DNA of 64,000 nt, taken from the NCBI GenBank assembly GCA_964582465.1, contig CAZOQX010000003.1:1115-65114 (forward strand), written 5' to 3'. The position numbers and the translations under genes are program-made. This DNA comes from an uncultured Candidatus Saccharibacteria bacterium. GTDB taxonomy: Bacteria; Patescibacteriota; Saccharimonadia; UBA4664; CAZOQX01. The notes under the pieces were generated by a model. The model was not told where the DNA came from. It made no database searches and saw only the letters and a program-made list of their open reading frames with translations. Shown here piece after piece: positions 19,076 to 53,205 of the stretch. Position 1 is the stretch's first letter. The number at the start of each line of letters is the position of its first letter.

Positions 19076-19471
19076 CTACTTGGAAACCGCACAGGCCTGA
19101 GCGAAGGAGGCGTGGTAGCCTTTCTTCGCCGCGAGGTGGGACGCCCAAGGGTACATGTCGCCAGACCGGCGAGTCAGCAGGACGTTGTAGTCCTCCTGGG
19201 CGCCTGCCGGGTCGGTGACGAAGTACACATAGGCCCGAACCGGCCGGTAGCTGCTAGACACGGGCCAGGTCAAGCGTTGCCGCCCATCCCTCCACCCGAT
19301 CTGGATTTTGACCGGACCAGTGAACTTGTAGCGATACGGCCGGTGCTGCCGTGTGGGCTTCGCGATACCATGAATCTGGTTACCACGACAGACCTTGCCG
19401 CTCGCCTGAGCAGGCAAAGCGCCCATCGCCACGACGGACACAATCACTGCCAACCAAATGAAACGCCGCAT
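19076..19471 (-). CDS. Small secreted hypothetical protein encoded in a GC-rich block
   Basis: 131 aa with a clear signal peptide MRRFIWLAVIVSVVAMGALPAQA. Local GC is visibly higher than the flanks. The antisense 131-aa ORF lacks a signal peptide and was not preferred. Confidence 0.5.
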   Translation of the reverse strand: MRRFIWLAVIVSVVAMGALPAQASGKVCRGNQIHGIAKPTRQHRPYRYKFTGPVKIQIGWRDGRQRLTWPVSSSYRPVRAYVYFVTDPAGAQEDYNVLLTRRSGDMYPWASHLAAKKGYHASFAQACAVSK

Positions 19472-19564
19472 TCGACGGCTCCTCTCGGTGGGATTGTCAA
19501 TACTTAACCATGATGTGTGCGTGCTGTCAATGACAGTAGCTCCGGCTCTGTTAAAATTACTGCT

Positions 19565-20635
19565 ATGAGTTTAAAAATCGGCATCGTGGGTTTACCAAAC
19601 GTTGGCAAGTCTACCCTCTTCAATGCCCTAACTAAAAACAACGTCCTTGCGGCCAATTACCCATTTGCGACCATTGAACCGAACGTTGGCATTGTGGCGT
19701 TGCCCGACAAACGTCTGGATGAACTCGCAATGCTTTTTCATCCAGAAAAGATCACCCCGGCCACAGTTACCTTCGTAGACATCGCCGGGCTCGTCGCCGG
19801 TGCCCACAAGGGGGAAGGGTTGGGGAATCAATTCTTGGCACACATCCGCGAAACTGATGCGATTTGCCAAGTTGTGCGGGCGTTCAAGGACCCCAACGTC
19901 ACTCATGTCGACGGCCAGGTTGAACCAAAACGCGATATCGAAACCATTCGTACCGAACTTGCCCTAGCCGACCTCGAGCAGCTTGAGCGTCGAGAAGGAA
20001 AATTGACCTCGGAGGCAAAATCGAGCCACGAAGCCGCCGCAGCACTAGAAGCGGTGCAAAAAGCCAAGCAAGCGCTAGATCAAAAACAATTCTTGGAGTC
20101 GAAGCTTGTCGAGAAATTACCTCCGGACCTTAACCTGCTCACGGCTAAACCGTTCATTTACGCCTTTAATCTAGACGAGGCCGACCTAGGCAACCAATCG
20201 TATCAAAAGGAATTGGCGGCTCTTGTTGATCCATCAAAATCGATTTTTTTATCGGCCAAAATCGAGGCCGAGCTAGCAGACTTGCCGCTCACAGAAGCGA
20301 GCAGTCTCTTGCAAGATCTCGGCCAGAGTCAGTCCGGCCTGGATCAGCTCGCACAAGCTGGTTTTGAAATCTTGGGCTTACAAACTTTCCTCACCGCCGG
20401 ACCAAAAGAAGTACGCGCCTGGACGATTCATCAAGGTGATACGGCACCACAAGCCGCCGGCGTCATTCACACTGACTTTCAAAAGGGCTTCATTCGGGCT
20501 GAGGTGGTAAGTTTTTTCGATTTAATCGCCACCGGCTCCGAATCTGCCGCCAAAGCCGCCGGTAAAGTCAGGTCCGAGGGCAAAGATTACGTCATGCAAG
20601 ATGGAGACGTCGTTGAGTTTAGGTTTAACGTTTAA
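19565..20635 (+). CDS. ychF: Ribosome-binding ATPase YchF (Obg-family GTPase)
   Basis: MSLKIGIVGLPNVGKSTLFNALT G1 motif. C-terminal TGS-domain-like region. Start moved to the internal ATG at 19565, which begins the conserved N-terminus. Confidence 0.85.
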   Translation: MSLKIGIVGLPNVGKSTLFNALTKNNVLAANYPFATIEPNVGIVALPDKRLDELAMLFHPEKITPATVTFVDIAGLVAGAHKGEGLGNQFLAHIRETDAICQVVRAFKDPNVTHVDGQVEPKRDIETIRTELALADLEQLERREGKLTSEAKSSHEAAAALEAVQKAKQALDQKQFLESKLVEKLPPDLNLLTAKPFIYAFNLDEADLGNQSYQKELAALVDPSKSIFLSAKIEAELADLPLTEASSLLQDLGQSQSGLDQLAQAGFEILGLQTFLTAGPKEVRAWTIHQGDTAPQAAGVIHTDFQKGFIRAEVVSFFDLIATGSESAAKAAGKVRSEGKDYVMQDGDVVEFRFNV

Positions 20636-21347
20636 TCAACACAAAGAAGCGCTCTACGTTGCCCTTGGTACCGGCAATCTTAGAATCAGCCTCTGCTTTG
20701 ATCTCATATTGATCACTTAATTGTTCACGAAATCGCTGCAATATCTGGATGCGCAAATTATCGTCTTTGATGACACCCCGCGCCCGATTAGCCTCACGCC
20801 TGGTCGCCTCAAATTGCGGTTTGGCAAGCACAACGATTGGCCCGCCCGGTTTAATCAAGGCGGCCATGCTACTGAGTATTTGTCCCAGCGCTATAAAAGA
20901 AACATCTGCCAGTGCCACATCGGGTATCACGGGCAAGCTGGTGACCTGCCTGATATCAGTTCGCTCCATCACTGTGACGCGGGGGTCATTGCGCAATGCA
21001 TAAGCCAGTTGACCATGTCCGACATCAACCGCAATAACCTCAGTCGCGCCGTGCTTAAGAGCAAAGTCAGTAAAACCACCTGTGGAAGCACCGACATCCA
21101 GAACCACCTTGTCCTCTACATTTAGACCAAGTTCGCCAAAGACAGAGGCCAGCTTATCCCCTCCCCGTGAGACATACTTCGGCATCGGCTTTAGGTCGAT
21201 ATCTGCATTTGAATCAACTGCAAGACCAGGTTTCGCGAGCCTACGCCCGCGTGAAAAAACCTCTCCCGCCATGATCATGGCTTGAGCCGCACGCAAATCC
21301 TGAGCCAGGCCTCGTCTGACAAGAAGTGAGTCCAGGCGCTCCTTCAT
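20625..21347 (-). CDS. tlyA: TlyA-family rRNA 2'-O-methyltransferase (S4 domain + FtsJ-like MTase)
   Basis: 240 aa. N-terminal S4-like RLDSLLVRRGL. Methyltransferase motif VLDVGASTGGFTD. Confidence 0.8.
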   Translation of the reverse strand: MKERLDSLLVRRGLAQDLRAAQAMIMAGEVFSRGRRLAKPGLAVDSNADIDLKPMPKYVSRGGDKLASVFGELGLNVEDKVVLDVGASTGGFTDFALKHGATEVIAVDVGHGQLAYALRNDPRVTVMERTDIRQVTSLPVIPDVALADVSFIALGQILSSMAALIKPGGPIVVLAKPQFEATRREANRARGVIKDDNLRIQILQRFREQLSDQYEIKAEADSKIAGTKGNVERFFVLIKR

Positions 21348-21910
21348 TTGGCTCGTTCGAGGTATTGACCAGTGCGAGTATCAACTTTAATACTGTCACC
21401 AACTTGGATAAAGAGGGGCACCTGGGTTTTTAGCCCGGTTTCAAGGGTGCACGCCTTAAGCGCGGCCGTAACTGTATCGCCGCGGGCACCGGGCTCACAC
21501 TCTGTGACTTTCATGTAGACGGTGTTGGGCAAGTCGATCCCTACCACCCGATCCTGAAATTTGAGAAGCGTTACGGTTGCACCGTCAGCCAAATAATTTA
21601 CCTGCTCTCCCAGCTTGGATGCATCAATTGCCTCTTGTTCAAAGCTGGTTTGGTCCATGAAGTAATACTGATTCCCCTCGCGGTAGAGGTATTGTAGGGC
21701 GGCCCGCTCGAGTTCGGCCGATTGGATTTTATCGGCCGCGCGGAAGGTCTTCTCCACCAGTGCCCCGGTCAGTAAGTTTTTAACCTTAACCCGCGCTACG
21801 GCACCGCCGCGGCCCATAGCCGCATGGGAATAATCCACCACGCGGTAAAGCTCACCGTCGAGCTCGATGAGAGTATCTTTGCGTAAATCCGTGTGACCAA
21901 GCATTGCCAT
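21344..21910 (-). CDS. efp: Elongation factor P
   Basis: 188 aa. Matches the EF-P family throughout (e.g. YLYREGNQYYFMDQTSFEQ). Confidence 0.9.
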   Translation of the reverse strand: MAMLGHTDLRKDTLIELDGELYRVVDYSHAAMGRGGAVARVKVKNLLTGALVEKTFRAADKIQSAELERAALQYLYREGNQYYFMDQTSFEQEAIDASKLGEQVNYLADGATVTLLKFQDRVVGIDLPNTVYMKVTECEPGARGDTVTAALKACTLETGLKTQVPLFIQVGDSIKVDTRTGQYLERAK

Positions 21911-21919
21911 AATTTTCTC

Positions 21920-22138
21920 CTAGCGCACTACAAAGGGCAAAAGCGACAGATGACGAGCTCGCTTCAGAGCCAAGCTTAGGCGGCGCTGGTGCTTGGCGCA
22001 AGTACCGGTGCGTTTGCGCGATTCGATTTTGCCATAGCTCGACAGGTAACGTTGCAACATTTTCACGTCCTTGTAGTCGATGTCATCAATCTGATCGACG
22101 CAAAACCGGCAAACTTTTTTGGAATAGAATTGGTTCAT
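21920..22138 (-). CDS. rpsR: 30S ribosomal protein S18
   Basis: 72 aa, CRFC...[14 protein letters not shown]...RKRTG S18 signature. Part of the rpsF-ssb-rpsR operon. Confidence 0.85.
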
Positions 22139-22147
22139 TTGGGTCTC

Positions 22148-22594
22148 CTAAAACGGAATATCGTCTAAGTTAACTGCTTCATCAGGAACGTCTTCAATCA
22201 CTACGTCATCGCTTTGAGCGGCAGCAGGTGCGGGACGACTCGGCGCCTCACCAGAAGCATCTCCAGCGCGATCCAAGAAGCTGATATCGTTTGCAACTAT
22301 CTCGGTCCGGCGCTGTTTGACGCCGTCTTTTTCCCAAGTCCTGGTTTGCAAACGACCCACCACCATTACCTTACGGCCTTTTGATAAGTACTGGCTGGCC
22401 AGTTCAGCAAGCTTGCCCCAGGCCACAATCTCATGAAATTCCACGGCTTCCTGGCGCTCACCATTTTGATCCTGCCACATTCGGTTGGTCGCAACTGCAA
22501 ATGATGCCACGTTCTGGCCGTTCGGTGTAGTCCTAAGCTCGGGGTCGCGCGTTAAATTACCCAGCACGATCGCTTGATTAAAACTTCTAGCCAC
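22148..22594 (-). CDS. ssb: Single-stranded DNA-binding protein
   Basis: 148 aa. OB-fold N-terminus (NQAIVLGNLTRDPELR) and acidic C-terminal DDIPF tail. Confidence 0.9.
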   Translation of the reverse strand: MARSFNQAIVLGNLTRDPELRTTPNGQNVASFAVATNRMWQDQNGERQEAVEFHEIVAWGKLAELASQYLSKGRKVMVVGRLQTRTWEKDGVKQRRTEIVANDISFLDRAGDASGEAPSRPAPAAAQSDDVVIEDVPDEAVNLDDIPF

Positions 22595-22958
22595 TTACTT
22601 CCTCACTTTCTGCGAGAGGGGCGGCTTCTTTGGCCGCGGCCTTCGCCTTTATCTTAGCTTCCTTTTGGGGACGCGGTTCCGGGCGGCGGACCAGCAGATG
22701 TCGCATAACCTCGTCTGTAATCAGTAGATTGGATTCCAGGCCCCTGACTTTCGCTCCATCCATTAATACTTCAAAAAGTACATAAACACCGAATTCTTGA
22801 TGTTTAACTTTATAAGCCAGGCGGCGCTTGCCCCAATTATCGCGCTTCACCACCTTTCCCCCGGTCGATTCAATCAATTTCTCGATCTTCGCAATCGGGG
22901 TATCAATATCTATTTCTAGATCTGGGTGGAAAACCACTACCAGTTCATATGGTCGCAT
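22587..22958 (-). CDS. rpsF: 30S ribosomal protein S6
   Basis: 123 aa. MRPYELVVVFHPDLE N-terminus is the S6 signature. Confidence 0.9.
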   Translation of the reverse strand: MRPYELVVVFHPDLEIDIDTPIAKIEKLIESTGGKVVKRDNWGKRRLAYKVKHQEFGVYVLFEVLMDGAKVRGLESNLLITDEVMRHLLVRRPEPRPQKEAKIKAKAAAKEAAPLAESEEVSG

Positions 22959-24371: not shown

Positions 24372-24373
24372 TA

Positions 24374-35257: not shown

Positions 35258-35400
35258 AACTTCATTATACCTTCGGATAAGAGTAGTTGGCGTAAAAGTT
35301 GTCTCCTATCATACCATAAGAATAATATTCAGTCAAGAGCAGTAGAAAGAACCTCCGAGGGGCCGCGGCTAGCAGCCCCCCGGAACATGCGATTCGATCG

Positions 35401-35679
35401 CTAGGTGAGTGGGTTGGGTTTCTCGAAGTTAACTCCCTTCGCGGCCCCCACCGAAAAGATGGCCACCCAGAGAAGGCCAAGCGCCAGGGCTGCGATGCCG
35501 ACCCACTTGGGGCCCCAGCCGAAGGTGGCGGCCACAACCCCAGCGACCATCAGAATCGTCAACCACGTGAACCAGCGGCGCCAGCGGCGATCGCGCTCCT
35601 CGTTTCGCCCCATCTCGTCATAGATCTTCCCGTTCAGCATGGCCTCCCCCTTCGAAAGCGTCGATACGAGTAGCATCAT
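35401..35679 (-). CDS. Small two-TM membrane protein in a GC-rich block (hypothetical)
   Basis: 92 aa (probably shorter, from MLNGKIYDE...). Two hydrophobic helices. Local GC is high by eye. Confidence 0.4.
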   Translation of the reverse strand: MMLLVSTLSKGEAMLNGKIYDEMGRNEERDRRWRRWFTWLTILMVAGVVAATFGWGPKWVGIAALALGLLWVAIFSVGAAKGVNFEKPNPLT

Positions 35680-37903: not shown

Positions 37904-38287
37904 TCATGCAGGGAATGGTTCGGGCTCCGGGGCTGGATCCAGGAACACGAACTTCGCGATGTCGGAAAGGGCGAAGTAGTAGGTGTCACCGGAGCACTTG
38001 ATGCACCACACGGCCTCGGCCTTCCTGCGATCGGGCAGAACACGCTCCTCGAATCTTCCACCCAGCTGGCCCACACGTGAGCGCGGTCCAGTGGAATCGG
38101 GCTCCATGAATTGATCACGGCTCTCCTGGAACCACGGCCGGTCCATGAAGAGCTCAACCCTAATTCGTAGGGAGCTTGAGAAGACCTCCCGGTGGAACTC
38201 GGCCAGGATCTTGGTCGTCGCCTCTTGGCCGGCTAGAGCAGCGTAGTAAGCCCGCACGGTCTGGAGGTACGTCTCGCCACTATCCAT
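37904..38287 (-). CDS. Hypothetical protein in a GC-rich insert (possibly NTF2/SnoaL-like)
   Basis: The track ORF runs to 38467 but overlaps the mutM 3' end. Internal ATG 38285-38287 is preceded by GGGAGGAAGAA. The protein MDSGETYLQTVRAYYAALAG... is weakly SnoaL-like. GC is clearly above the neighbouring genes. Confidence 0.4.
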   Translation of the reverse strand: MDSGETYLQTVRAYYAALAGQEATTKILAEFHREVFSSSLRIRVELFMDRPWFQESRDQFMEPDSTGPRSRVGQLGGRFEERVLPDRRKAEAVWCIKCSGDTYYFALSDIAKFVFLDPAPEPEPFPA

Positions 38288-39893: not shown

Positions 39894-42607
39894 TACATTT
39901 CGCCCCAGTTCTTGCCGATCTTCGTGTCAACGTCGAGCTTAACTTTAAATTTGTGAACTTTCTCCATTTTGTCCTTAAGGTAGGCGGCGACAGACTCGGC
40001 CTTCTTTTCAGACACTTCCACTATTAACGAATCATGCACCTGCAAAAGCATCTTGGCGTCGGAATCCATCTCCTGGCCGATTTGGATCATCACCAGCTTC
40101 ATCAAATCCGCCTCAGTGCCTTGGATGGGCATGTTAATAGCCGCCCGCTCCGCCGCCTGGCGCACCACAAAATTAGCGCTTTTTACATCCGGCGTCGGAC
40201 GGCGACGACCAAACAGCGTCTCCACATAACCATCTTTGTGCGCCTTCTCGCGCAAGCTCTCCAGATAAACGAGCAGCTGTTTGCGCATACCGAAATAGCG
40301 ATCAATGAAAGCCTTCGCCGTATCGTGATCCATGCCGGTCGCCACGCTCAAACCGTGCGGACTCATGCCGTAGAGCACGCCAAAGTTCACTGTTTTGGCG
40401 GCCGCGCGCATATCTTTCGTGACTTTATCCTCGGGCACGTTAAATAATTCCGCTGCCGTCTCCACATGAATATCGACGCCGCGATTGAACGTTTCAATCA
40501 TGTCTTGGTCGTCCGCCAGTACCGCCGCCAAGCGCAGTTCAAATTGTGAGTAGTCAGCCGAGATTAATAGTTTGCCGGCACCGGCCACAAAGGCCTTGCG
40601 GATTTCGCGACCCAGCTCGGTTCGCACCGGAATGTTTTGCAAATTGGGGTTATTCGAGCTCAGGCGACCGGTCGCGGCAATGGTTTGGTTATAGCTCGTA
40701 TGCAAGCGACCGTTTTTATCGACCAGGAGCGGCAAAGCATCGATGTACGTGCTTTTGAGCTTGGTCAGCTCACGGTATTCCATAATTAAATCGATAATCG
40801 GGTGAGTACCCTGGAGCTTTTCTAGCTCGCTTGCAGCCGTAGACACGCCACTCTTCACCCGTTTTAAACCTACCGATCCAAGATTCAACCTATCAAATAA
40901 AACCGCTTTGAGCTGCTGGGTAGAACTAATATTGAATGAACCGCCGGCCATTTCCCAAATGTCTTTTTCGAGCTTGGTGATGCGCTTGCCCACCACATCA
41001 GCAAGTTCTTTTAGGTAAACCGAGTCGAGTTTAATGCCCTCGATCTCCATGGCAGCAAGCACTGGGATGAGGGGCCATTCCTGTGTCTCGGCCACCTTCT
41101 GCAGACGGTCGGTTTTTTTTAGCTCCGGTCGCAACTTTTCGTACAGGCGCCAGGTGATATCAGCATCCTCGCAGGCGTAGCAATGGGCGTCTTCGATAGT
41201 CGTAACGTCAAACGTCGTTTGCCCACGACCCGTGCCGATTAAACGTTCAATTGGAATCATCTCCAAACCAAGTTCGTTAAAAGCCAGATCACTTAATCCT
41301 GGCGATCGGCGCAAAGGGTTGAGCAAAAATGCCGCCACCATAGTGTCGAACACTACCGGGCCAAGCTCCACCCCACAGGTACGAAACACCTCATAATCGA
41401 ATTTGATGTTGTGGCCAACTTTGCCGATTTTAGGATTTTCGAGCACCGGCTGGAGCAGTCGGAAGATCTCATCTTTTTTAAGTTGGTTGCCACTTTGATG
41501 GCCCACCGGGATATACCACGATTGCTTGGCCTTAAAGCTGATGGAAATCCCCACCAGTGTCGCGGTAATAGAATCTACACTGTTTGTTTCCGTATCAATC
41601 GCGATCACAGGCTGCTGCTCGAGCAACTTCACCAGTTTTGTGAGTTTTTCGGCTGTATCTACAATCTCGTAATCCACGTCCACCGGTTTTTCGATGGTTG
41701 CCTCGGCCTGATCGAACAAGCTCGGCACCTTGGCCTTTGCCGGTTGGGGTAATTTATCGAGCAAACTCTTAAATTCGAAGCGTTGGAAGAGCTCAAAAGC
41801 CCGATCCCGGTCGATCTCACCCCACCGGGATTTGTCCAGGTCGAGCTTGATTGGCATATCGGTCACAATGGTTGCAAGCTTGCGGCTGAGCATGGCCTGG
41901 TCCTTATTCTCCCGCAATTTGTCGGCTACCGCTGGCTTCAGCTCATCCAGGTGTTCATAAATCCCCTCGAGCGAACCATGCGTTTGAACTAAACTCATCG
42001 CCGTCTTCTCACCAATCCCCGGCACGCCGGCAATATTATCGCTGGCATCACCCTTGAGCGCCTTAAAATCCACGAACTGCGCTGGCGTCATGCCGTAAGT
42101 TTCCTGCATGGCCGCAGTATCAAAGATCACCGTGTCCGTCATGCCGCGCCGCATCGTGTAAACTCGCGTATTGTGGTCAATCAGCTGCAGCTCATCCTTG
42201 TCGCCCGTTACAATCACCGTATCTAAATTTTGGACCGAGGATTGTTTTGCGAGCGTGCCAATAATGTCGTCAGCCTCGTAGTCTTCCACTTCTACAAGCG
42301 GAATGGCGAGAGCGTCAATTACTTCTTTGACCAGGGGAATTTGCTGGCGCAGATCATCCGGCATTTCCGCTCGGTTAGCCTTATATGTGGGTGAGAGGTC
42401 ATTGCGAAATGTCTTCTTCGATTTATCCCAAGCCACTACCACATAGTCTGGCTTCAAGTCGCGAATGCTGTTTAGGAGCATCAGCGTAAAGCCGTACACA
42501 GCGTTAGTGGGCGTACCGTCTTTAGTGGAAAGTCCCGGGATAGCATGATAACCGCGGTGAAATACCGCGTTGCCATCAAATAGTACTATCCTCTTCTTTG
42601 CTGCCAT
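39893..42607 (-). CDS. polA: DNA polymerase I
   Basis: 904 aa. 5'-3' exonuclease N-terminus, 3'-5' exo-like middle, and polymerase motifs (DYSQFELR, KTVNFGVLYG, QVHDSLIVE). Confidence 0.95.
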   Translation of the reverse strand: MAAKKRIVLFDGNAVFHRGYHAIPGLSTKDGTPTNAVYGFTLMLLNSIRDLKPDYVVVAWDKSKKTFRNDLSPTYKANRAEMPDDLRQQIPLVKEVIDALAIPLVEVEDYEADDIIGTLAKQSSVQNLDTVIVTGDKDELQLIDHNTRVYTMRRGMTDTVIFDTAAMQETYGMTPAQFVDFKALKGDASDNIAGVPGIGEKTAMSLVQTHGSLEGIYEHLDELKPAVADKLRENKDQAMLSRKLATIVTDMPIKLDLDKSRWGEIDRDRAFELFQRFEFKSLLDKLPQPAKAKVPSLFDQAEATIEKPVDVDYEIVDTAEKLTKLVKLLEQQPVIAIDTETNSVDSITATLVGISISFKAKQSWYIPVGHQSGNQLKKDEIFRLLQPVLENPKIGKVGHNIKFDYEVFRTCGVELGPVVFDTMVAAFLLNPLRRSPGLSDLAFNELGLEMIPIERLIGTGRGQTTFDVTTIEDAHCYACEDADITWRLYEKLRPELKKTDRLQKVAETQEWPLIPVLAAMEIEGIKLDSVYLKELADVVGKRITKLEKDIWEMAGGSFNISSTQQLKAVLFDRLNLGSVGLKRVKSGVSTAASELEKLQGTHPIIDLIMEYRELTKLKSTYIDALPLLVDKNGRLHTSYNQTIAATGRLSSNNPNLQNIPVRTELGREIRKAFVAGAGKLLISADYSQFELRLAAVLADDQDMIETFNRGVDIHVETAAELFNVPEDKVTKDMRAAAKTVNFGVLYGMSPHGLSVATGMDHDTAKAFIDRYFGMRKQLLVYLESLREKAHKDGYVETLFGRRRPTPDVKSANFVVRQAAERAAINMPIQGTEADLMKLVMIQIGQEMDSDAKMLLQVHDSLIVEVSEKKAESVAAYLKDKMEKVHKFKVKLDVDTKIGKNWGEM

Positions 42608-42722
42608 TACATTAATTATAGCGAAATTGCTTACTTTCGTGCCGCTTAAGGTTGCTAATCAGGTTGTCAGATTGCAAAATTGCTTTATTGGCATTGCCCG
42701 CTCTTCGACAAAAGGAGCAAAG

Positions 42723-43286
42723 TTGAGCACTCCGACCCTGACACGCCCGGCCCGAACCTACTGGAAGGTCGAGCGCCTGAAGCTGAGCTACAGTGGCATC
42801 GAGGAACGTCGCGAACAGGTACGGCTGCAATCCGAGGCCAACCTCATCGCCTCGCTGTGCGCAAATGGTCTCCACGCCCCGGCACTGGATCTCGACTTTG
42901 AGGTCGATACAGTGAACGTCGGAGACCGAACCCTGCTGACCTTCCACAAGCGAGTGCCTATGCGAGGCTTCAAGTCTCTGCTCAGGGCCTGGCAGGCCTC
43001 GGGCATGTGGCCTGGAGGTGAATGGTGGTGGCAGCCAGGAAGCGTGACACTCATGACTCTGTATCCGACGCGCCTAGTCGCCTCCAGCACGCCCGGCCAC
43101 CACCACCTCTACTACGATCGAGAGATCACCTGGGAGGAATACGCCGAGCTGCTACGTGGACTTCGCGACGCCGGGCTCATCCAGCGCGGGTTCTGTCGCA
43201 TGAGCCTCCGGCGCAAAATGACCATGTTGCGCCTCCCCGGGCACACCAAGAAGACCACACCTCTTCAACCCAGGTTCTCCGACTAG
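42723..43286 (+). CDS. PrimPol-like (bifunctional primase/polymerase N-terminal domain-like) protein, tentative; first gene of GC-rich island
   Basis: TTG start at 42723, 7 nt after AAGGAG. The track ORF from 42570 overlaps the polA 5' end. LDLDFEVD (DxD-like) and STPGHHHLYYD (sGxHhyF-like) motifs are spaced ~50 aa, as in PF09250-type prim-pol domains. GC is high by eye. Confidence 0.35.
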   Translation: MSTPTLTRPARTYWKVERLKLSYSGIEERREQVRLQSEANLIASLCANGLHAPALDLDFEVDTVNVGDRTLLTFHKRVPMRGFKSLLRAWQASGMWPGGEWWWQPGSVTLMTLYPTRLVASSTPGHHHLYYDREITWEEYAELLRGLRDAGLIQRGFCRMSLRRKMTMLRLPGHTKKTTPLQPRFSD

Positions 43287-43320
43287 TGTCGGCACGCGGA
43301 CAGTTTGATTGGAGGTTCCA

Positions 43321-43527
43321 GTGGCAAAGTTGAAGCCACGACAGAGGCAAATCCTCGCAGCCCTGGTTTCCCTCGGCGGCGAGGGCAGTACCCGCGAGAT
43401 CGCCGAGAAAGCTGGACTCTCTCCGAACGGTGTAGCCCAGACGCTGGGCTCCCCCGCCTTCGACGACATTGTCGAAGGCTTGGACGGCAAGGCCGGCGAC
43501 TACCGGTGGAAACTGCGCGTTCGCTGA
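43321..43527 (+). CDS. Small winged-helix DNA-binding protein (MarR/ArsR-like)
   Basis: GTG start 5 nt after GGAGG. RQRQILAALVSLGGEGSTREIAEKAGLSPNGVAQTL has the typical wHTH recognition-helix pattern. Confidence 0.45.
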   Translation: MAKLKPRQRQILAALVSLGGEGSTREIAEKAGLSPNGVAQTLGSPAFDDIVEGLDGKAGDYRWKLRVR

Positions 43528-43731
43528 TGCCGAATTTCGGAATCAGCCAATTCGCCGCTGGTTTCACCTACTTCGTCGGTGCGAAACTTCAGCCGATCGC
43601 CGATCTTTTGACCGAACGCCGGTTACATGTGCTCGGCTGTGAGGACCGATTCAACAAGGACCGGCGGCGTCGGAAATTCGGCTGCATGCATTACCCCAAG
43701 GCAGCCATCAGACAATGGAGGAGGCACTGAC

Positions 43732-44154
43732 ATGGGTGAGATGTTGGTCGACGGCAGGGATGCCAAGGTCTACATTCTCTGCCGCCAGCCCGGTGACGTC
43801 CCGTTCGCGTGGTACGAATATTGGGTGGTGTTTCGCGATGGCGAAGTGATCGAGGGCGCTAGCACCAGCGTGCACGATCTCTCCATCGTCGGGGACACGC
43901 TCATGCACAGTCGCCGCATCAACAACGCCCAGTTCCAAACCCCGCCCACGCCGGGGCGAGGCAAGTCGTCGGAACGTTGGCCGGTTCGAGTCATTGAACT
44001 CGGCCACTACTACGGCGAGACCGATGAGGTGGACGATGATCCCCTCTTCTGTCGCTACGACTGCGGCGCCTTCATCACCTGGTATGAGGGTGATGCGCCA
44101 TCAGGCGTCGACCCGTTCGGCGAGTGCCCCAACCATCCGGAGGCCAAGCGATGA
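43732..44154 (+). CDS. Hypothetical protein (island gene 3)
   Basis: ATG preceded by GGAGGAGG. 140 aa. C-terminal Cys/His cluster (CRYDCGAF...GECPNHPE). No recognised family. Confidence 0.45.
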   Translation: MGEMLVDGRDAKVYILCRQPGDVPFAWYEYWVVFRDGEVIEGASTSVHDLSIVGDTLMHSRRINNAQFQTPPTPGRGKSSERWPVRVIELGHYYGETDEVDDDPLFCRYDCGAFITWYEGDAPSGVDPFGECPNHPEAKR

Positions 44155-44417
44155 GAGCTAGGCACTCCCCCACACCCAGTGGCACCCCGATCCGTGATTC
44201 AGAGTCAATCGGGCTCAGAAGCACGTTACTGCGGCAGGCCGCTCCCTTGCGGCGGGCCGCTCTGGACCTTGATCCGGATGCGTGGCGACGAGCGGTTAAA
44301 GTGATCGGCTCTCCCACGGATGTCCGTTATGTGCTCGCCATGTTCGACGACGAACTGCCGGCACAGGCGCTGGAGTTCGCCCGACGCATGCTGGCAAAGA
44401 CGGAGGCATCAAAATGA
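44151..44417 (+). CDS. Hypothetical protein (island gene 4)
   Basis: ATGA start/stop overlap with the upstream gene. 88 aa with an Arg-rich N-terminus. Exact frame choice is uncertain (alternative track ORF 44124..44417). Confidence 0.3.
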   Translation: MRARHSPTPSGTPIRDSESIGLRSTLLRQAAPLRRAALDLDPDAWRRAVKVIGSPTDVRYVLAMFDDELPAQALEFARRMLAKTEASK

Positions 44418-44530
44418 GCAAGCAAAAGACAGCTGTGATCGGTGCGGTCGGCCTGCTCGGGCTAGCGATGTTCTACCTCGGGCGGTTCATGGCCAGGCAC
44501 TCGCACGACCTCGGACCCTGCGGCGATTAG
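44414..44530 (+). CDS. Tiny single-TM peptide (38 aa)
   Basis: ATGA overlap with the upstream stop. MSKQKTAVIGAVGLLGLAMFYLGRFMARHSHDLGPCGD. Confidence 0.35.
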   Translation: MSKQKTAVIGAVGLLGLAMFYLGRFMARHSHDLGPCGD

Positions 44531-44539
44531 GAGGTCAAG

Positions 44540-44638
44540 ATGCGCAAGCTTGTAGGCTACACGCTTCTGGGCATCGCGGCCTACCTCGTTGCCAAGATCA
44601 TCTGGGATTTCCTCGGCCATCTCAGTGAACGGCCATGA
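44540..44638 (+). CDS. Tiny single-TM peptide (32 aa)
   Basis: Strong SD AGGAGG 6 nt upstream. MRKLVGYTLLGIAAYLVAKIIWDFLGHLSERP. Confidence 0.35.
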   Translation: MRKLVGYTLLGIAAYLVAKIIWDFLGHLSERP

Positions 44639-44645
44639 GCGCCTC

Positions 44646-45038
44646 ATGAGATCTAGCCCACTCCTCAGCCTGCGTGAGCGTGAAGTCGCCGAACTCGCAA
44701 GCTCCGGTCTGACCAACAAGGAGATTGCCGCTCAGCTCGGCCTCTCGCCCGAAACCATCAAGAATCACTTGTCTCATGCCTTCACGAAACTCGGCGTACA
44801 CAACCGAATTGAGCTGGCTCGCGAGATGGTGCACCGCGAGATGATCCGCGCGAGCAGCACGAGGGTGACAATTCTCGCCACGTCCTTTGACGACGGATCT
44901 TGGTTCGTTGCCATCAAGGAGGACGAAACAGTCAGCGTCGTTCCGTTCAGCAAACGTGAGGAATGGGAGGCTTTTCGCCAAGCACTGGAAGTCCTCCAGC
45001 CCTACCTCTGCGCCCAACTGCGGATAATCGAGCGGTGA
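44646..45038 (+). CDS. LuxR/GerE-family HTH transcriptional regulator with uncharacterised C-terminal domain
   Basis: LSLREREVAELASSGLTNKEIAAQLGLSPETIKNHLSHAFTKLGV is a canonical LuxR-type HTH placed at the N-terminus. Last gene of the island. Followed by a hairpin. Confidence 0.65.
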   Translation: MRSSPLLSLREREVAELASSGLTNKEIAAQLGLSPETIKNHLSHAFTKLGVHNRIELAREMVHREMIRASSTRVTILATSFDDGSWFVAIKEDETVSVVPFSKREEWEAFRQALEVLQPYLCAQLRIIER

Positions 45039-45058
45039 GCTCTAGCAGCCCGACACCG

Positions 45059-45088
45059 GGGCCCGGGATTCTAACGAATTCCGGGCCC
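45059..45088 (+). terminator. GC-rich hairpin (8-bp stem GGGCCCGG/CCGGGCCC) downstream of the LuxR gene
   Basis: Inverted repeat read directly from the sequence. Followed by TTGGCCGTTTTA. Confidence 0.45.
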
Positions 45089-45112
45089 TTGGCCGTTTTA
45101 ATTACAAAGAAA

Positions 45113-45154
45113 GCGCCCCTGGCTCGTGCAAAGCCTCGGGGCGCAGTCGTTTTT
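45113..45154. terminator. Bidirectional rho-independent terminator (rpoD on minus; island operon on plus)
   Basis: GCGCCCC...GGGGCGC stem. T-runs on both strands (AGTCGTTTTT on plus, TTTCTTTGTAATTAAAA on minus). Immediately 3' of the rpoD stop. Confidence 0.6.
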
Positions 45155-48033: not shown

Positions 48034-48113
48034 TTAGAAGTAATTGTAGCACTTGAAAGCAAGAGCCCCGCCGGATGACCGGCAGGGCCCGCTTGAACCG
48101 CTGTGCTGTGTCG

Positions 48114-48302
48114 TCACTGTGAGTTATAGATGCTGGCATCCTCGCGGATACTGGCGACACAGTGAGTGCACAGGAGGCAAGACCCCAGCCAGCAGTGCGA
48201 GCAATCCTCGCAGTCATGCGGCGGCCCCACCTTGAAGAAGTCCCGACGCCGCGTCGCGCTGTTCTGGCTCGGAGTCGCTTGCTCGGTACCCGGTGCTGCC
48301 AC
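48114..48302 (-). CDS. Possible small Cys-rich ORF (CxxCxxCx4CxxCxxC) in a GC-rich block upstream of dnaG; coding status uncertain
   Basis: Translation verified codon by codon: ...HDCEDCSHCWLGSCLLCTHCVASIRED... GTG start. Overlapping plus-strand ORFs also exist, so this may be non-coding. Confidence 0.2.
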   Translation of the reverse strand: MAAPGTEQATPSQNSATRRRDFFKVGPPHDCEDCSHCWLGSCLLCTHCVASIREDASIYNSQ

Positions 48303-48571
48303 AGGGAATCCTCTCTGGAAGACGAAAACGGAGACTGGGAGGGACTTGTCCTAGCATCTCAGACTCACCCACATACGCAGCTGCCATGGTCACTGTGCGT
48401 CCTAGTCATACGTGCCGCCACCTGGCCTCGGGCCCGAGTCGCAAGTGGGCGTCGCAGAGAACTTCTTGAACGACCAGCCGTCCGCTAGATCTAGAATATG
48501 ACGACATCCTTTCACGTTACAAGCATAAGGGCAGTTCGAACTTAAGCGTTTTATGTGATTAAATTAAGCTG

Positions 48572-49143: not shown

Positions 49144-49233
49144 GGAGAGGTCGCATAGTGGCCTAGTGCGCTCGCTTGGAAAGCGGGTGAAGTCGCAAGG
49201 CTTCCGAGGGTTCGAATCCCTCCCTCTCCGCCA
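49144..49233 (+). tRNA. tRNA-Ser (anticodon GGA), CCA encoded
   Basis: Hand-folded. Acceptor GGAGAGG/CCTCTCC, 3-bp D-stem (type II), anticodon stem CTCGC/GCGGG with loop TTGGAAA (anticodon GGA), long variable arm TGAAGTCGCAAGGCTTCC, T-arm GAGGG-TTCGAAT-CCCTC, discriminator G, CCA. Confidence 0.85.
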
Positions 49234-49315: not shown

Positions 49316-49651
49316 CTAAATGAGCTGGGAGAGAGCCGCTCGGTCCTCGGCCATCCACAGGTACCCCTTGCGGGTGGTGGTATTGACGAATCCCCCCACT
49401 GCCCACCTCTTGTGGGTCTCGATTACTTCGCCGTCCAACGTCTCAGACATGACCATGCCCTCGATGTTGTGCGTGTGACCAGAACCGTCCTCGTGCTCGA
49501 GACGGCGGATGCGTGCGTAGACGGTGTGGCCATTCGCGAGATCGAGCTTGGCGAACAGTTTCACCGGACTGAAGGCGAATTTATAGCAATCCGCCAGTCG
49601 ATCGTCAGAAGGACAATCGACTATCTCGAGCTTTTCCAACCAATTCGTCAT
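49316..49651 (-). CDS. Hypothetical protein in a GC-rich block adjacent to tRNA-Ser
   Basis: 111 aa, no recognised motifs. The block ~49300-49760 is visibly GC-rich. An AT-rich promoter region follows before the ABC transporter. Confidence 0.4.
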   Translation of the reverse strand: MTNWLEKLEIVDCPSDDRLADCYKFAFSPVKLFAKLDLANGHTVYARIRRLEHEDGSGHTHNIEGMVMSETLDGEVIETHKRWAVGGFVNTTTRKGYLWMAEDRAALSQLI

Positions 49652-49816
49652 GCCACCCCCTTTGGGGTACGGTGTCTGTCAGGCCGACACTCTCGCCGTT
49701 ACTCCTTTGGGGAGTCACCAGCCCATACGAGCTGGGATTTAATTAGGATAATACCACTTAAGCTTTAGTTTGTCAATTGATTAGCCAAACCACTGACGCG
49801 GATTTACAATTAGGCT

Positions 49817-50497
49817 ATGCTCGTAATCGCCCTCAAGCAAGTTAACAAAGTTTTTCACGACCAGGCCACCCCGACGCCCGTATTATTCGATATTAATATT
49901 GAAGTGAGTAAGGGCGATTTTGTAGCCATTAGCGGGCCGTCCGGGTCGGGCAAATCAACTCTAATGAACATCTTGGGCCTGCTAGATACTCCCACCAGCG
50001 GCCACTATCTGCTAGACGGCAAGGAAGTTGGTAATCTGCCCGACCGCAAGTTGGCCAAATTCCGGCGCCAGAAAATCGGCTTCGTTTTCCAGAACTTTAA
50101 TCTCATCCCCCGCCTAACGCTATTACAAAATATCGAGCTACCGATGATCTACGCCGGTCTTAGCGCCAAGGAGCGCCACGCCCGCGCCGCTCGGCTCTTA
50201 AAACAAGTCGGGCTAGACGCCTTCGCCGACTATAAACCCACCCAGGTCTCCGGCGGCCAAGCCCAGCGCGTCGCTATCGCCCGAGCCCTCGCCAATAAGC
50301 CAAGTCTGCTGCTAGCCGACGAACCCACCGGCAACTTGGACAGCAAAAATAGCCGGGCCATCATGGAGCAGCTCAAAGTCCTGAATAAAGCCGGCGTCAC
50401 CATTATCGTGGTTACCCATAATCCAGAGGTAGCCGCCTTTACCCACCGCACCATTACCGTTCGCGACGGCCGCATCCAACCCAGGAGAACCGTATGA
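49817..50497 (+). CDS. ABC transporter ATP-binding protein (MacB/LolD/FtsE family)
   Basis: Walker A GPSGSGKST, signature LSGGQAQRVAIARAL, Walker B LLLADEPTGNLD. Confidence 0.9.
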   Translation: MLVIALKQVNKVFHDQATPTPVLFDINIEVSKGDFVAISGPSGSGKSTLMNILGLLDTPTSGHYLLDGKEVGNLPDRKLAKFRRQKIGFVFQNFNLIPRLTLLQNIELPMIYAGLSAKERHARAARLLKQVGLDAFADYKPTQVSGGQAQRVAIARALANKPSLLLADEPTGNLDSKNSRAIMEQLKVLNKAGVTIIVVTHNPEVAAFTHRTITVRDGRIQPRRTV

Positions 50498-51717
50498 TCT
50501 GGGAAAACTTTAAAATGGCCCTACGTTCGCTACGTGGCGCCAAGCTGCGCTCATTCCTAACCATGCTCGGCATTATCATTGGTGTAGCATCGGTTACAAC
50601 AATCATCGCGATTGGCCAAGGCGTCAAAGTTGAGGTCGCCAAGCAAATTAATAGTTTTGGTGCCAATAGCGTTTTTATTACGCCGGGACAATTAATTACC
50701 ACCGACAAAAACGGCAAAACTTCCCTAAACCCCTCCGCCGGCGCTGGGACCACTACTCTAACCTCCCAGGACGTCGATTCGGTAAAAAAACTAGCCCACA
50801 TTACAAGTGTAGCCCCGATCAGTCTGTTCTCGGGTTTGATCTCTCAGGGAGCCAGCCAGGACCCGTCGGCCCTCCTACTTGCTACCACCCCGAGTTTTAA
50901 TGAAATTCAAAAACAAACCCTTGCGGCTGGCCGCTTCCTAAAGACTACCGATACGACTCAGGATGTGGTGGTACTCGGCAGCAAGGCTGCTGCCAGCTTA
51001 TTTGGCGATCACGCCGCCGTGGGCCAAACCGTTACAATTCGAACTACGCCGTTCAAAGTCGTTGGCGTTTTTGCTGCCTCACCAAACACCGGTTTTAATT
51101 TCGGCCCCAGTCTGGACGATGCCGTCTACATCCCCGAAAATAGCGCCGTTAAGCTCACCAAAAGCCCACTTCAGATCCTGAGAATCGTGGTCGAAGTTGA
51201 CTCAGCTAGCTCGGTAAACCCTGCCGTTTCCAGCTTAAAGCAGCAACTGCTTAAAAATCATGGCGGCCAAGAGGACTTCAGCGTGCTAAAGCAATCAGAT
51301 ATTATCAGCGCCACCGGCCAAATATTAAATCTGCTAACCACCTTCATAGTCGCCATCGCTTCGATCGCCCTCTTGGTTGGCGGCATCGGCATTATGAATA
51401 TCATGCTGGTGTCGGTCACCGAGCGCACTCGCGAGATCGGCATCCGCAAGGCCATCGGCGCCTCCGCTTCCATCATTATGCTGCAGTTTTTAATCGAAGC
51501 GGTGGTGATCAGCTTCATCGGTGGGCTCCTGGGCCTCGGCCTATCGCTTGTGCAGGGACAACTGGCGGAGAAATTCGCGAAAATTCATCCGGTCTATACG
51601 CTCGGTGCTATTTTGCTCGCCTTCGGTGTTTCAACGCTAATAGGCGTGGTCTTTGGCATCGCGCCAGCTATCAAGGCAGCCCGCAAGCGCCCAATCCAAG
51701 CGTTAAGATACGAGTAA
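50494..51717 (+). CDS. ABC transporter permease, MacB/FtsX family with large extracytoplasmic domain
   Basis: 407 aa. TM1, a ~230 aa extracytoplasmic domain, then three C-terminal TM helices (FtsX-like). ATGA overlap with the ATPase gene. Confidence 0.85.
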   Translation: MIWENFKMALRSLRGAKLRSFLTMLGIIIGVASVTTIIAIGQGVKVEVAKQINSFGANSVFITPGQLITTDKNGKTSLNPSAGAGTTTLTSQDVDSVKKLAHITSVAPISLFSGLISQGASQDPSALLLATTPSFNEIQKQTLAAGRFLKTTDTTQDVVVLGSKAAASLFGDHAAVGQTVTIRTTPFKVVGVFAASPNTGFNFGPSLDDAVYIPENSAVKLTKSPLQILRIVVEVDSASSVNPAVSSLKQQLLKNHGGQEDFSVLKQSDIISATGQILNLLTTFIVAIASIALLVGGIGIMNIMLVSVTERTREIGIRKAIGASASIIMLQFLIEAVVISFIGGLLGLGLSLVQGQLAEKFAKIHPVYTLGAILLAFGVSTLIGVVFGIAPAIKAARKRPIQALRYE

Positions 51718-51720
51718 CAA

Positions 51721-52734
51721 CTAGCCTAATTCTTTTTTAAGCTCTTCAACCAAATCGACAGGCAGTGGATCAACCCGGTTTAGAAATGCGAGATACACGC
51801 TCACGAAATCGCCGAGCAGCGTCGTCCATAAAATCTGCTGGATCTTGGTTTCGCCCTTGGCCTCCACTACCAGGGGCTTAGGCATATGCCCAGCGAGCAG
51901 ACGGCTCACGATGTCGTAGCTTTTAACAACGCGTGGATGATCAAAGCTGGATTTAATCTGCACCACTTTCAGCTTTGGTTGCTCCGGGTGGAGCCATCCT
52001 TGGAATTCGTTGTGTTTAAATTCAGGCCAGAGGTAATAAAAAGCTAGATTCTTGGCGTTTTCATTCAGATCAATCTTCCACTTTAAAACTGCCGGCGCCA
52101 TTTGGGTGCTACCGTAAACCACCACGACGTGCCCCTGCAGATCCTGGGCCAGTTGCTTTGCGGGGTTATTCGCCACCGACTTGTCTTTACTCCAGCTAGC
52201 GATTTCTTTAATTAACCACTCCCCCGCTTCTTCCAGCTCAGCCGTTGCACCACTAACTAGACCGACCGACTCAAGTAGCGTCGCCAGTGCTTTGAGCGCA
52301 AAGAAAACGGCCAGGCGGGGCTGCAGGGCCGCTGGGACTTTGAGCATAGGGATTTGCTCGCGTTCGGCCACCTTTTCCAGATCTCCGCCAGAGGCTAAGA
52401 TGACAACTTTAGCATTCCTCCCCTTGGCGTCCTCGAGCGCAGATAGTGCCTCCTCGGTATCACCTGAGTAACTAGAAGCTATCACTAAAGTATTTTCACC
52501 CACCCAAGCCGGCAAATTATAATCACGCACGATTTCGAAGGGCACTTGCAGATCGTCACGCAACCAACACTTAATAAATTCACCTGGCAATGCCGACCCA
52601 CCCATTCCGACAAGAACCACGTTGCTGGGCAGAGGCAGATTAATAGCAAGCGGAAATTGCTGTTTCAGTTGGGTTAGTTGGCCGGCGATTACTGCCAGTG
52701 CATTACCTTGATCAACCTCACGAACATCAGACAT
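51721..52734 (-). CDS. Bifunctional phosphoglucose/phosphomannose isomerase (SIS domain)
   Basis: 337 aa with two SIS-like halves (VVLVGMGGSALPGEF; VVVVYGSTQMAPAV). Resembles archaeal-type PGI/PMI. Confidence 0.7.
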   Translation of the reverse strand: MSDVREVDQGNALAVIAGQLTQLKQQFPLAINLPLPSNVVLVGMGGSALPGEFIKCWLRDDLQVPFEIVRDYNLPAWVGENTLVIASSYSGDTEEALSALEDAKGRNAKVVILASGGDLEKVAEREQIPMLKVPAALQPRLAVFFALKALATLLESVGLVSGATAELEEAGEWLIKEIASWSKDKSVANNPAKQLAQDLQGHVVVVYGSTQMAPAVLKWKIDLNENAKNLAFYYLWPEFKHNEFQGWLHPEQPKLKVVQIKSSFDHPRVVKSYDIVSRLLAGHMPKPLVVEAKGETKIQQILWTTLLGDFVSVYLAFLNRVDPLPVDLVEELKKELG

Positions 52735-52815
52735 GTCTCTATTATGCCATAAACGTATGATGCAAGAAGCCCGCCATCCAGGCGAAACTCCTCGCGTCAG
52801 ATGACGGGCATGTGG

Positions 52816-53205
52816 CTAGTCGGGGTAGATGGGCTCATCCCCGGTCATAATGAAGTGAAGGAAGACGTCTGCTACCCCTGGCAAGGCTTCATCCTCTGCC
52901 GGCTTATCCTTTACCGGGTCGCGGCCCTTCCAGCTCAAGAACTCGACAGCTGCCCTCATCGACAGCGAGCGGCGCACCTCTTGAGCTGAGAGTCGTGTGT
53001 GCTCTCTTGGGACCTCTTCAACCGTGGTATCGGCGCCGCTTGCGTCGATGTAAGCAGAGATGACCAGGGTCGTGGCCAAGACATTGCGAATCCTCACTAT
53101 CCCAACGGGCGAATGTACCGCACCCGCCGCCCGGGGATGCCATAAAGACAGGGCCTGGAACAAAGCTGTGGCCCGAATGTCTTCTTCTCTTGAGAGCAGA
53201 CTCAC
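52816..53205 (-). CDS. Hypothetical protein in a GC-rich block between PGI/PMI and groEL
   Basis: 129 aa ORF. High GC by eye. No recognised motif. Overlapping plus-strand ORFs make coding status uncertain. Confidence 0.3.
   Translation of the reverse strand: MSLLSREEDIRATALFQALSLWHPRAAGAVHSPVGIVRIRNVLATTLVISAYIDASGADTTVEEVPREHTRLSAQEVRRSLSMRAAVEFLSWKGRDPVKDKPAEDEALPGVADVFLHFIMTGDEPIYPD

Follow-up and report, generated by a model that had tools for sequence, protein, structure and literature searches.

Recent ORFans derived from phages or integrative elements have been described (Cortez, Forterre and Gribaldo, 2009; PMC2718499), as have the ORFans of E. coli (PMC3514957, PMC2275313), and classical ORFans are AT-richer than the genome in which they reside (PMC3514957). 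For the Saccharimonadia, gene transfer involving actinobacterial partners has been reported from wastewater, and the published cases are based on nucleotide identities of above 90-99% between symbiont and partner (preprint 10.64898/2026.09.16.751625). The blocks A to F studied here, located in an uncultured member of this class, share with integrative-element ORFans that they are short, lineage-restricted, homolog-free with the exception of E, atypical in composition, scattered between core genes and close to a recognisable phage-derived cassette of the same composition. On the other hand, they are single genes that lack integrase, att site and other element hallmarks, and they are GC-richer than their genome, contrary to the usual pattern of AT-rich orphans. 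Like genomic islets or mini-islands they occupy variable junctions of a conserved backbone, with cargo that differs or is absent across the Saccharimonadia; unlike these, they are very small (0.3-0.5 kb) and devoid of a mobility signature, and their polarity is read from distant relatives only. As in Candidatus Lutisaccharimonas and Candidatus Phosphoribacter, a Saccharimonadia genome carries DNA that resembles a high-GC partner community in composition; the blocks, however, have no donor sequence, and the identity of the recognisable island gene to its nearest relatives reaches only 32-59%. This gene, island ORF1, resembles the actinobacteriophage families phrog_10893 and phrog_18245 in profile match and motifs, a likeness at low identity that does not extend to blocks A-F.

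The window, i.e., the whole stretch of 64,000 nucleotides that was analysed, contains the following features, and the flanking genes are those named in the preliminary description (ychF; rpsT and DHH; His_Phos_1 and mutM; dnaG and DUF305; tRNA-Ser(GGA); PGI and groEL).

19076..19471, minus strand: block A, 131-aa orphan gene, divergent from ychF
35353..35385, minus strand: terminator-like hairpin, 16 nt past the ORF B stop codon (consensus scan only)
35401..35679, minus strand: block B, 92-aa orphan gene between DHH and rpsT
37904..38287, minus strand: block C, orphan gene of 127 aa, flanked by mutM and the histidine phosphatase gene (His_Phos_1)
42608..45152, plus strand: GC-rich island of 2.5 kb between polA and rpoD
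48063..48090, minus strand: hairpin, 24 nt past the stop codon of the D pseudo-ORF
48114..48563, minus strand: block D, probable decayed gene in the divergent dnaG/DUF305 spacer
49144..49233, plus strand: tRNA-Ser(GGA), separated by 82 nt from ORF E at the 3' end of the latter (ARAGORN and Rfam)
49316..49651, minus strand: block E, 111-aa small protein of a Saccharibacteria-specific family with motifs DGPS and LEHEDGSG
52816..53205, minus strand: block F, orphan ORF of 129 aa, flanked by groEL and PGI

With regard to base composition, each block was compared with all windows of the same size outside the 42.6-45.15 kb island, the GC content of the whole window being 0.523 (background 52.3%). 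Values for A (0.619, z 3.2, 99.8th percentile), B (0.620, z 2.8) and C (0.604, z 2.7) are followed by those for F (0.585, z 2.1) and D (48034-48560; 0.575, z 2.0), and E is not significant (0.565, z 1.4). GC3 of the called ORFs amounts to 0.77 for A, 0.82 for B, 0.73 for C, 0.73 for E and 0.66 for F; core genes have a mean of 0.57 (sd 0.045, maximum 0.66), and the 99th percentile for 100-codon windows within them is 0.71. The elevated GC originally claimed for all six blocks is therefore clear for A, B and C, which are compositional outliers, moderate to marginal for D and F, and confined to GC3 in E. A blind scan of the window for phase-specific GC returned A, B, C, D, E and the island as its top signals (0.82 for A and B, 0.79 for E), along with five borderline stretches (0.74-0.76) that all lie within core genes; it missed F. 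Since the highly expressed genes groEL (0.61), rpsF (0.48) and that for EF-P (0.58) are not rich in GC3, translational selection fails to account for the bias. No repeated sequence is common to any two of the blocks, no integrase, transposase or att-like or flanking repeat was found near any of them, and E is the only one that adjoins a tRNA.

A, B, C, E and F appear to be real genes. Their ORFs exhibit significant three-base periodicity with GC3 > GC1 > GC2 in the called frame (p = 2e-3 to 2e-6), and all five have a Shine-Dalgarno-like motif. For A (chi-square p = 5.5e-5) this is GAGGAG, 9 nt upstream, and for C (p = 1.3e-4) GGGAGG, 6 nt upstream. The N-terminus of ORF A resembles a Sec signal peptide, MRRFIWLAVIVSVVAMGALPAQA|SG, as judged by eye without a predictor, and an AlphaFold model from the single sequence was uninformative (pLDDT 41). 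Block A is adjoined by a further singleton orphan at 18565-18966, which is of normal composition (GC3 0.54). In the product of ORF B (p = 2.5e-6) a charged N-terminus precedes two hydrophobic segments; the hairpin beyond it has a stem of 14 pairs, ten of them G-C, and a T-rich tail. Assignments of ORF B to Pfam DUF3040 (18.5 bits, cut-off 24.7), NCBIfam PspM_Rv2743c (17.3 bits, cut-off 27.7) and SepX_GlpR_3 (22.5 bits, cut-off 150) were rejected; these sub-threshold matches are to actinobacterial small-membrane families and span the hydrophobic hairpin only.

ORFs A, B, C and F returned nothing except themselves when 1.84e9 representatives, standing for about 15 billion proteins, were searched at E <= 1e-3, and each is a singleton in clustering at 90% identity, all five ORFs occurring on this one contig alone. 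Searches with tblastn of phage and plasmid collections gave zero matches for A, B, C, D and F, and homologs pointed to no donor lineage for any of these five. By sequence comparison the ORFan label given to all blocks fits A, B, C and F, not E, and D lacks an intact ORF.

Block D is probably a decayed gene or pseudogene. One phase is GC-rich throughout (phase-specific GC 0.70-0.82 across 48130-48490, periodicity p = 0.02), and stop codons at 48351, 48390 and 48402 interrupt its frame, so that neither the stop map nor translation yields an intact ORF. The hairpin that follows has a stem of 12 pairs, ten of them G-C, and a weak T tail. As residue 64 of the long ORF is where the Zn-ribbon starts, the true start of dnaG lies near 48034. 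Block F is the weakest case and marginally atypical, its GC3 lying within the core-gene range; ORF F has periodicity (p = 0.002) and a GAGGAGG motif 5 nt ahead of its GTG start, and the groEL terminator at 53296-53271 is situated upstream of it.

Block E constitutes a separate case. A profile search recovered at least 180 small proteins, of which all named members stem from Saccharibacteria; the family has neither a name nor a Pfam entry, and homology is full-length and includes the conserved motifs. P14, H53, E54, G56, S57 and G96 are invariant in an alignment of 70 sequences, a common fold is predicted confidently (pLDDT 89), and a promoter-like site precedes the gene. Composition in the family mostly follows the resident genome, GC3 exceeding that of flanking genes by >0.15 in nine of 40 members. 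The idea that E had been transferred is contradicted, by the standard that the preliminary description itself set, by this restriction to Saccharibacteria and mostly resident composition; E is a resident family gene whose high GC3 is incidental.

The island (GC 0.598, z 4.7) carries ORFs exclusively on the plus strand, opposite to the flanking genes:

42723-43286, plus strand: ORF1, phage family, phrog_10893 match
43309-43527, plus strand: wHTH-like ORF
43627-44154, plus strand: ORF
around 44411-44640, plus strand: two tiny TM ORFs
44589-45038, plus strand: LuxR/GerE HTH protein (GerE domain, E = 7.8e-20)

In a comparison with PHROGs, ORF1 matched phrog_10893 at 4.9e-13; residues 166-228 (238-aa numbering, ORF 42570-43286) match both this family and phrog_18245, and the conserved motifs are HAPALDLDF and SSTPGHHHLY.D..I.W..Y..LL. 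All of its 120 GenBank phage homologs come from actinobacteriophages, 13 of 15 homologous IMG/VR loci have 56-68% GC, and the closest metagenome homologs reside on contigs of 68% and 71% GC, one of them next to an Rpf-like transglycosylase. The high-GC source proposed earlier is thereby supported for island ORF1. Judged as a prophage remnant, the island contains a phage-family gene and HTH regulators and lacks an integration module; neither an integrase nor an att repeat or convincing flanking repeats were found in it, nor does its DNA match phages at the nucleotide level.

In agreement with the proposal of a foreign composition, codon usage in the blocks follows the island and not the core. 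The relative synonymous codon usage (RSCU) of the five pooled ORFs correlates with that of the island at r = 0.82, a value reached by none of 2000 core samples (maximum 0.72), and with the core at r = 0.59, a value as low being found in only 2.9% of core samples; the likeness to the island stems partly from the common high GC3. Single blocks are too short for this test; for A alone, r is 0.40 against the island and 0.44 against the core. GC1/2/3 are 60.5/47.6/73.7 for A, B, C and F and 61.2/48.2/72.6 for the island, and amino-acid usage is alike in blocks and island, R and W being high and K, N and Q low.

Synteny, where examined, was in accordance with insertion. In relative L002 mutM and holA are adjacent, both C and the phosphatase gene being absent, and in L004 and L006 rpoD and polA are adjacent and the island ORFs have no counterpart. 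The B junction of L002 is occupied by other ORFs, L008 possesses a GC3-rich two-gene islet of its own in the polA-mutM gap, and cargo varies or is absent at the rpoD-polA, polA-mutM, mutM-holA and rpsT-DHH junctions among Saccharimonadia. The relatives compared are distant (polA <= 56% identical), so that insertion polarity is only coarsely resolved, and the junctions of A, E and F lie outside the comparison.

Several explanations have to be weighed for these observations. Since stop codons are rare in GC-rich DNA, the blocks could be GC-rich spacers or structured RNAs with long chance ORFs, as would befit the overlapping ORFs on both strands of every block, the lack of an intact ORF in D and the marginal status of F. 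This is very improbable, as the periodicity is significant, the GC-rich phase is position 3 of the called frame and five ORFs have Shine-Dalgarno-like motifs, to which the signal-peptide-like start of A, the hydrophobic segments of B and the homologs and confidently predicted fold of E are added. No block matches Rfam at the gathering score, the tRNA-Ser being the sole match in the entire window, and D and E, searched also at E <= 1, gave nothing credible. A chimera, in which assembly or binning inserted short reads of high GC into the contig of a Saccharimonadia genome, might be suspected because the source is a metagenome-assembled genome and the ORFs are singletons on one contig. Its probability is next to negligible, since the junctions of A, B, C and F, each block flanked by housekeeping genes at either end, recur in an independent Logan assembly of run SRR9179560, in which the 3.2-kb contig spanning A is 100% identical to the window.

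Direct copying of chromosomal genes of a high-GC actinobacterial host, as envisaged in the preliminary description, has a reported precedent in wastewater Saccharimonadia (preprint 10.64898/2026.09.16.751625). It would agree with the high-GC style of codon and amino-acid usage, with the actinobacterial nature of B's sole, weak and sub-threshold matches and with the high-GC surroundings of the island gene's closest metagenome homologs, including the Rpf-like transglycosylase. We nevertheless regard it as quite unlikely. Actinobacteria are presumably well sampled among the protein representatives searched, and as A, B, C and F have no homologs there, the data lend no support to a sequenced actinobacterial host as their source; the homologs of E are Saccharibacterial only. 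In genomes of 65-72% GC, GC3 is expected to exceed 0.73-0.82 unless genes are largely ameliorated, and ameliorated genes should retain protein homologs. Rather doubtful, albeit less so, is a native origin of the blocks as fast-evolving lineage-specific genes with a GC3 excess caused within the lineage, for instance by frequent recombination coupled to GC-biased repair or by family codon preference. The GC3 of the resident-family gene E and the nine deviating members of its family speak for it, as do the missing donor homologs, the absence of mobility genes nearby and the orphan beside A. The latter, however, has ordinary GC3, and small ORFs in 20 Saccharibacteria loci are as a rule not rich in GC3, the mean difference being -0.01 to -0.03 and only 5-7% of them lying above +0.15. 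Furthermore, the R/W-rich and K/N-poor amino-acid usage is exactly that of the phage-derived island, and codon usage is nearer to the island than in any core sample.

Because their codon usage matches that of the phage-derived island, the blocks look like relics of mobile DNA acquired from outside. We tentatively consider them single-gene remnants of phage-type mobile DNA from a high-GC pool, of common origin with the island, and assign this reading a probability of roughly 45%; as no block has a phage homolog, composition alone ties them to the island. The intact A, B, C and F and the decayed D would then be lineage-specific accessory genes at junctions of the conserved Saccharimonadia backbone, and the island would be a phage-derived cassette of ~60% GC with a recognisable gene from a family mainly found in phages of high-GC hosts. 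Phage-type DNA from a pool of roughly 56-68% GC would enter the 52% GC genome, deletion would trim the imported pieces down to single genes, and D would represent a late stage of decay. The survivors may be expressed, A as a secreted protein, B as a small membrane protein and C and F in the cytoplasm. An extension of this history, which we deem unlikely, holds that the episymbiont repeatedly captures phage or prophage DNA from the high-GC (actinobacterial) host, possibly as it consumes lysed cells of the latter, and keeps A and B for the host interface, single orphan genes being retained because they act there. The only pointers to such a role are the putative signal peptide of A and the hydrophobic segments of B, both read from the sequence.

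The present result mainly corrects the first reading, in that host chromosomal transfer is unsupported, E belongs to a conserved family and D is a probable pseudogene. If the blocks are phage-borne DNA that stems from the host pool, their composition could reveal the partners of uncultured CPR bacteria, and they would indicate that very small genomes, too, still acquire and trim foreign genes. Should the capture of host phages prove true, GC-rich islets would be a readable record of the host virome in the genome of the symbiont.

The preliminary description had singled out six blocks as GC-rich ORFans that suggest piecemeal acquisition from a high-GC donor, plausibly an actinobacterial host. 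The GC content of each was tested against every window of the same size outside the island that fills the polA/rpoD gap; overall GC of the window is 52.3%.

Composition of the six blocks
Block A, 19076-19471, minus-strand ORF: GC 0.619, z 3.2, ORF GC3 0.77
Block B, 35401-35679, minus-strand ORF: GC 0.620, z 2.8, ORF GC3 0.82
Block C, 37904-38287, minus-strand ORF: GC 0.604, z 2.7, ORF GC3 0.73
Block D, 48034-48560, without intact ORF: GC 0.575, z 2.0
Block E, 49316-49651, minus-strand ORF: GC 0.565, z 1.4, ORF GC3 0.73
Block F, 52816-53205, minus-strand ORF: GC 0.585, z 2.1, ORF GC3 0.66

The composition signal is located at codon position 3. Core genes (n = 42) have a mean GC3 of 0.57 and a maximum of 0.66, and the 99th percentile for 100-codon windows within them is 0.71. 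A blind phase-specific GC scan of the window (threshold of at least 0.74) recovered blocks A, B, C, D and E as well as three island segments and five borderline stretches (0.74-0.76), all of the latter within core genes, while block F was missed. Judged by z-scores, GC3 and blind scan together, the claim of elevated GC is therefore good for A, B and C, applies to E in GC3 only and is weak for D and F. A singleton orphan adjoining A (18565-18966, minus strand, 133 aa, signal-peptide-like start) has normal composition (GC 0.53, GC3 0.54); orphan status and GC richness are thus separable in this genome.

The ORFs of A, B, C, E and F are called on the minus strand, and in each of them the GC-rich phase coincides with the third codon position; GC falls in the order GC3 > GC1 > GC2, and the periodicity is significant (chi-square p: A 5.5e-5, B 2.5e-6, C 1.3e-4, E 2e-6, F 2e-3). 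Each of the five ORFs is preceded at 5-10 nt by a Shine-Dalgarno-like motif; in addition, a strong hairpin terminator lies downstream of B and a sigma-70-like promoter (11/12 match) upstream of E. As read from the sequence, A has a signal-peptide-like start and B two hydrophobic segments; a single-sequence AlphaFold model of A was uninformative. No Rfam family was found in any block at gathering score, nor in D and E at E <= 1, and the idea of non-coding RNAs was therefore dropped. A repeat search detected no repeats common to the blocks, which rules out copies of one element, and none flanking them. Elsewhere in the window, two pairs of long direct repeats, 15294-15593/15918-16217 (300 nt, 95%) and 6995-7173/7524-7702 (179 nt, 88%), are situated in adjacent ORFs and suggest recent tandem gene duplications, and a very long ORF (10521-14993, minus strand, 1490 aa) is present upstream of the region. 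A, B, C and F reappear, each between housekeeping genes, in Logan contigs of run SRR9179560; the contig spanning A is 100% identical to the window. This makes a chimeric assembly unlikely for these four blocks.

Block D, described previously as a lone small ORF, proved to be something else. In the long ORF, the Zn-ribbon of DnaG starts only at residue 64, which places the true dnaG start near 48034 and makes D the spacer between dnaG and the gene for a DUF305 protein. One phase has 0.70-0.82 GC throughout 48130-48490, but three stop codons (48351, 48390 and 48402) interrupt the corresponding minus-strand frame, which ends at 48114, with a hairpin 24 nt beyond this end. We read D as a probable decayed gene (48114-48563, minus strand).

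The names assigned earlier to the flanking genes were confirmed with Pfam, ARAGORN and Rfam: ychF; rpsT and a DHH protein gene; a His_Phos_1 phosphatase gene, mutM and holA; polA and rpoD; dnaG and the DUF305 protein gene; tRNA-Ser(GGA); an ABC/MacB pair; PGI, groEL and groES. In a polA search of species-representative genomes the nearest relatives were Saccharimonadia metagenome-assembled genomes (MAGs) with at most 56% identity, and rpoD is about 76% identical to that in two loci of relatives, L001 and L002. These identities support assignment to Saccharimonadia at class level and point to distant relatives among the genomes searched. The gene order dnaG-rpoD-polA...mutM-holA-rpsT is kept in relatives. 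RpoD adjoins polA in loci L004 and L006, while L001, L002, L005 and L008 carry 2-3.8 kb of unrelated cargo between the two genes, e.g., an ice-binding-like gene in L005 and, in L002, a purF-like gene and two genes for Rpf-like transglycosylases (L002:6378-7190 and L002:9462-9863) with PF06737, a domain typical of Actinobacteria. In L002, mutM adjoins holA, and both C and the phosphatase gene are missing. None of the comparison loci of relatives contains a counterpart of any block or island ORF. Locus L008 (MAG contig CAZGCZ010000012.1, 43% GC) has a two-gene GC3-rich islet of its own in the polA-mutM gap (L008:11276-11888), encoding an 82-aa two-TM protein (GC3 0.82) without homology to window ORF B and a 123-aa ORF (GC3 0.64), the long genes of the locus having a GC3 of 0.36. 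Small ORFs across 20 Saccharibacteria loci are not generally GC3-rich; the clustering of GC3-rich ones in the window is therefore exceptional and no trait of the clade as a whole.

The island (42.6-45.15 kb; 59.8% GC, z 4.7) is a unidirectional plus-strand cassette between the minus-strand genes polA and rpoD. It comprises ORF1 (42723-43286), a GerE/LuxR HTH protein, a small wHTH-like protein and, just upstream of the LuxR-type gene, two tiny TM ORFs (44411-44640, plus strand, about 38 and 33 aa, one hydrophobic segment each) that could encode phage-type small membrane peptides. ORF1 matches phrog_10893 and phrog_18245 in PHROGs, and tblastn retrieved 120 GenBank phage records, every one (120/120) from phages of Actinobacteria (Mycobacterium 42, Gordonia 39, Microbacterium 28, Arthrobacter 6, Rhodococcus 3, Curtobacterium 2). 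Homologs occur on 15 viral contigs in IMG/VR, 13 of them with a locus GC of 56-68% and two (L096, L098) of low GC; the nearest metagenome homologs reside on contigs of 68% GC (L078) and 71% GC (L079, with an Rpf-like PF06737 transglycosylase gene beside it), and one more on a contig of 52% GC. On L078 the family is present as two tandem paralogs (L078:164-1636). Two motifs rich in His and Asp, HAPALDLDF and SSTPGHHHLY.D, are strongly conserved in the family and resemble a site for catalysis or metal binding. The evidence from ORF1 argues that the island is phage-derived DNA from a high-GC pool. Neither an integrase nor convincing flanking repeats were found at the island; the sole candidate for att-like ends, a bracketing 30-nt direct repeat of 73% identity (42618-42647/45165-45194) with its second copy within the rpoD 3' end, is probably due to chance. 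At the nucleotide level, island DNA gave no match to phages, and among plasmids only a trivial LuxR-HTH match in those of Rhodococcus; the island ORF at 43627-44154 gave no match to phages, and those of the LuxR ORF were confined to generic HTH regions.

When A, B, C, E and F are pooled, their relative synonymous codon usage (RSCU) correlates with that of the island at r = 0.82, a link that is compositional only and follows in part from shared high GC3. None of 2000 size-matched samples of core genes reached this value against the island (mean 0.46, maximum 0.72), and correlation of the pooled blocks with the core was 0.59, as low as in only 2.9% of core samples. GC1/2/3 of A, B, C and F (60.5/47.6/73.7) is close to that of the island (61.2/48.2/72.6), with R and W enriched and K, N and Q depleted in blocks and island alike. 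Highly expressed genes are not GC3-rich; translational selection therefore does not explain the bias. Donor GC estimates in the style of Muto-Osawa and Lawrence-Ochman differed from one codon position to the next (54-56%, 72-80% and 62-63%) and were discarded.

An exhaustive phmmer (HMMER) search with the five concatenated proteins A, B, C, E and F against 1.84 billion representatives yielded self-hits only for A, B, C and F and four weak matches for E; each of the five is a singleton cluster at 90% identity. The proposed copying of genes from a host chromosome is thus not borne out for A, B, C and F. Translated searches (tblastn) with these four and the D translation produced no match in phage and plasmid records, and none of the five ORFs had a match in Pfam, NCBIfam, PHROGs or PADLOC, apart from sub-threshold ones of the hydrophobic hairpin of B to actinobacterial small-membrane families.

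A profile search seeded with E and the four weak matches collected 180 proteins of 100-150 aa, whose named members all belong to Saccharibacteria or Saccharimonadales, and the family is absent from IMG/VR. Among 40 distinct members, the GC3 of the gene is correlated with that of its flanks (r = 0.66; mean excess +0.07), nine of them, the window copy included, exceeding +0.15; a GC3 fixed at about 0.75-0.8 whatever the genome, as first seen in loci L017, L019 and L021, was ruled out by this sample. With such taxonomy and tracking of flanking GC3, E is therefore no ORFan of foreign origin, as had been proposed, and is a gene of a resident family. This uncharacterised, class-specific family (about 110-130 aa; loci L017-L077 and the window) is widespread in Saccharibacteria. 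Its genes stand singly between housekeeping genes, in many cases no more than 1-2 kb from leuS, and the proteins share invariant residues in the motifs DGPS and LEHEDGSG and a confident beta-rich predicted fold without PDB counterpart or Pfam entry.

The best-supported reading takes A, B, C and F, together with the decayed gene D, for what is left, one gene in each case, of mobile phage-type DNA that came from a high-GC pool, and places them in the same class as the island. Integrative elements are known to give rise to orphan genes, which are mostly AT-rich. The main rival holds that the blocks are native, fast-evolving orphan genes of atypical composition, and it stands because there is no donor sequence and because E, though resident, looks alike. 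A preprint (10.64898/2026.09.16.751625) has reported, from near-identical DNA, horizontal transfer involving Saccharimonadia and actinobacterial partners, whereas the blocks lack such identity. For the four orphan proteins, our working guess from sequence features is that A would be secreted, to stay at the cell surface or pass into the medium, that B would form a two-helix hairpin in the membrane, and that C and F would be cytoplasmic proteins.
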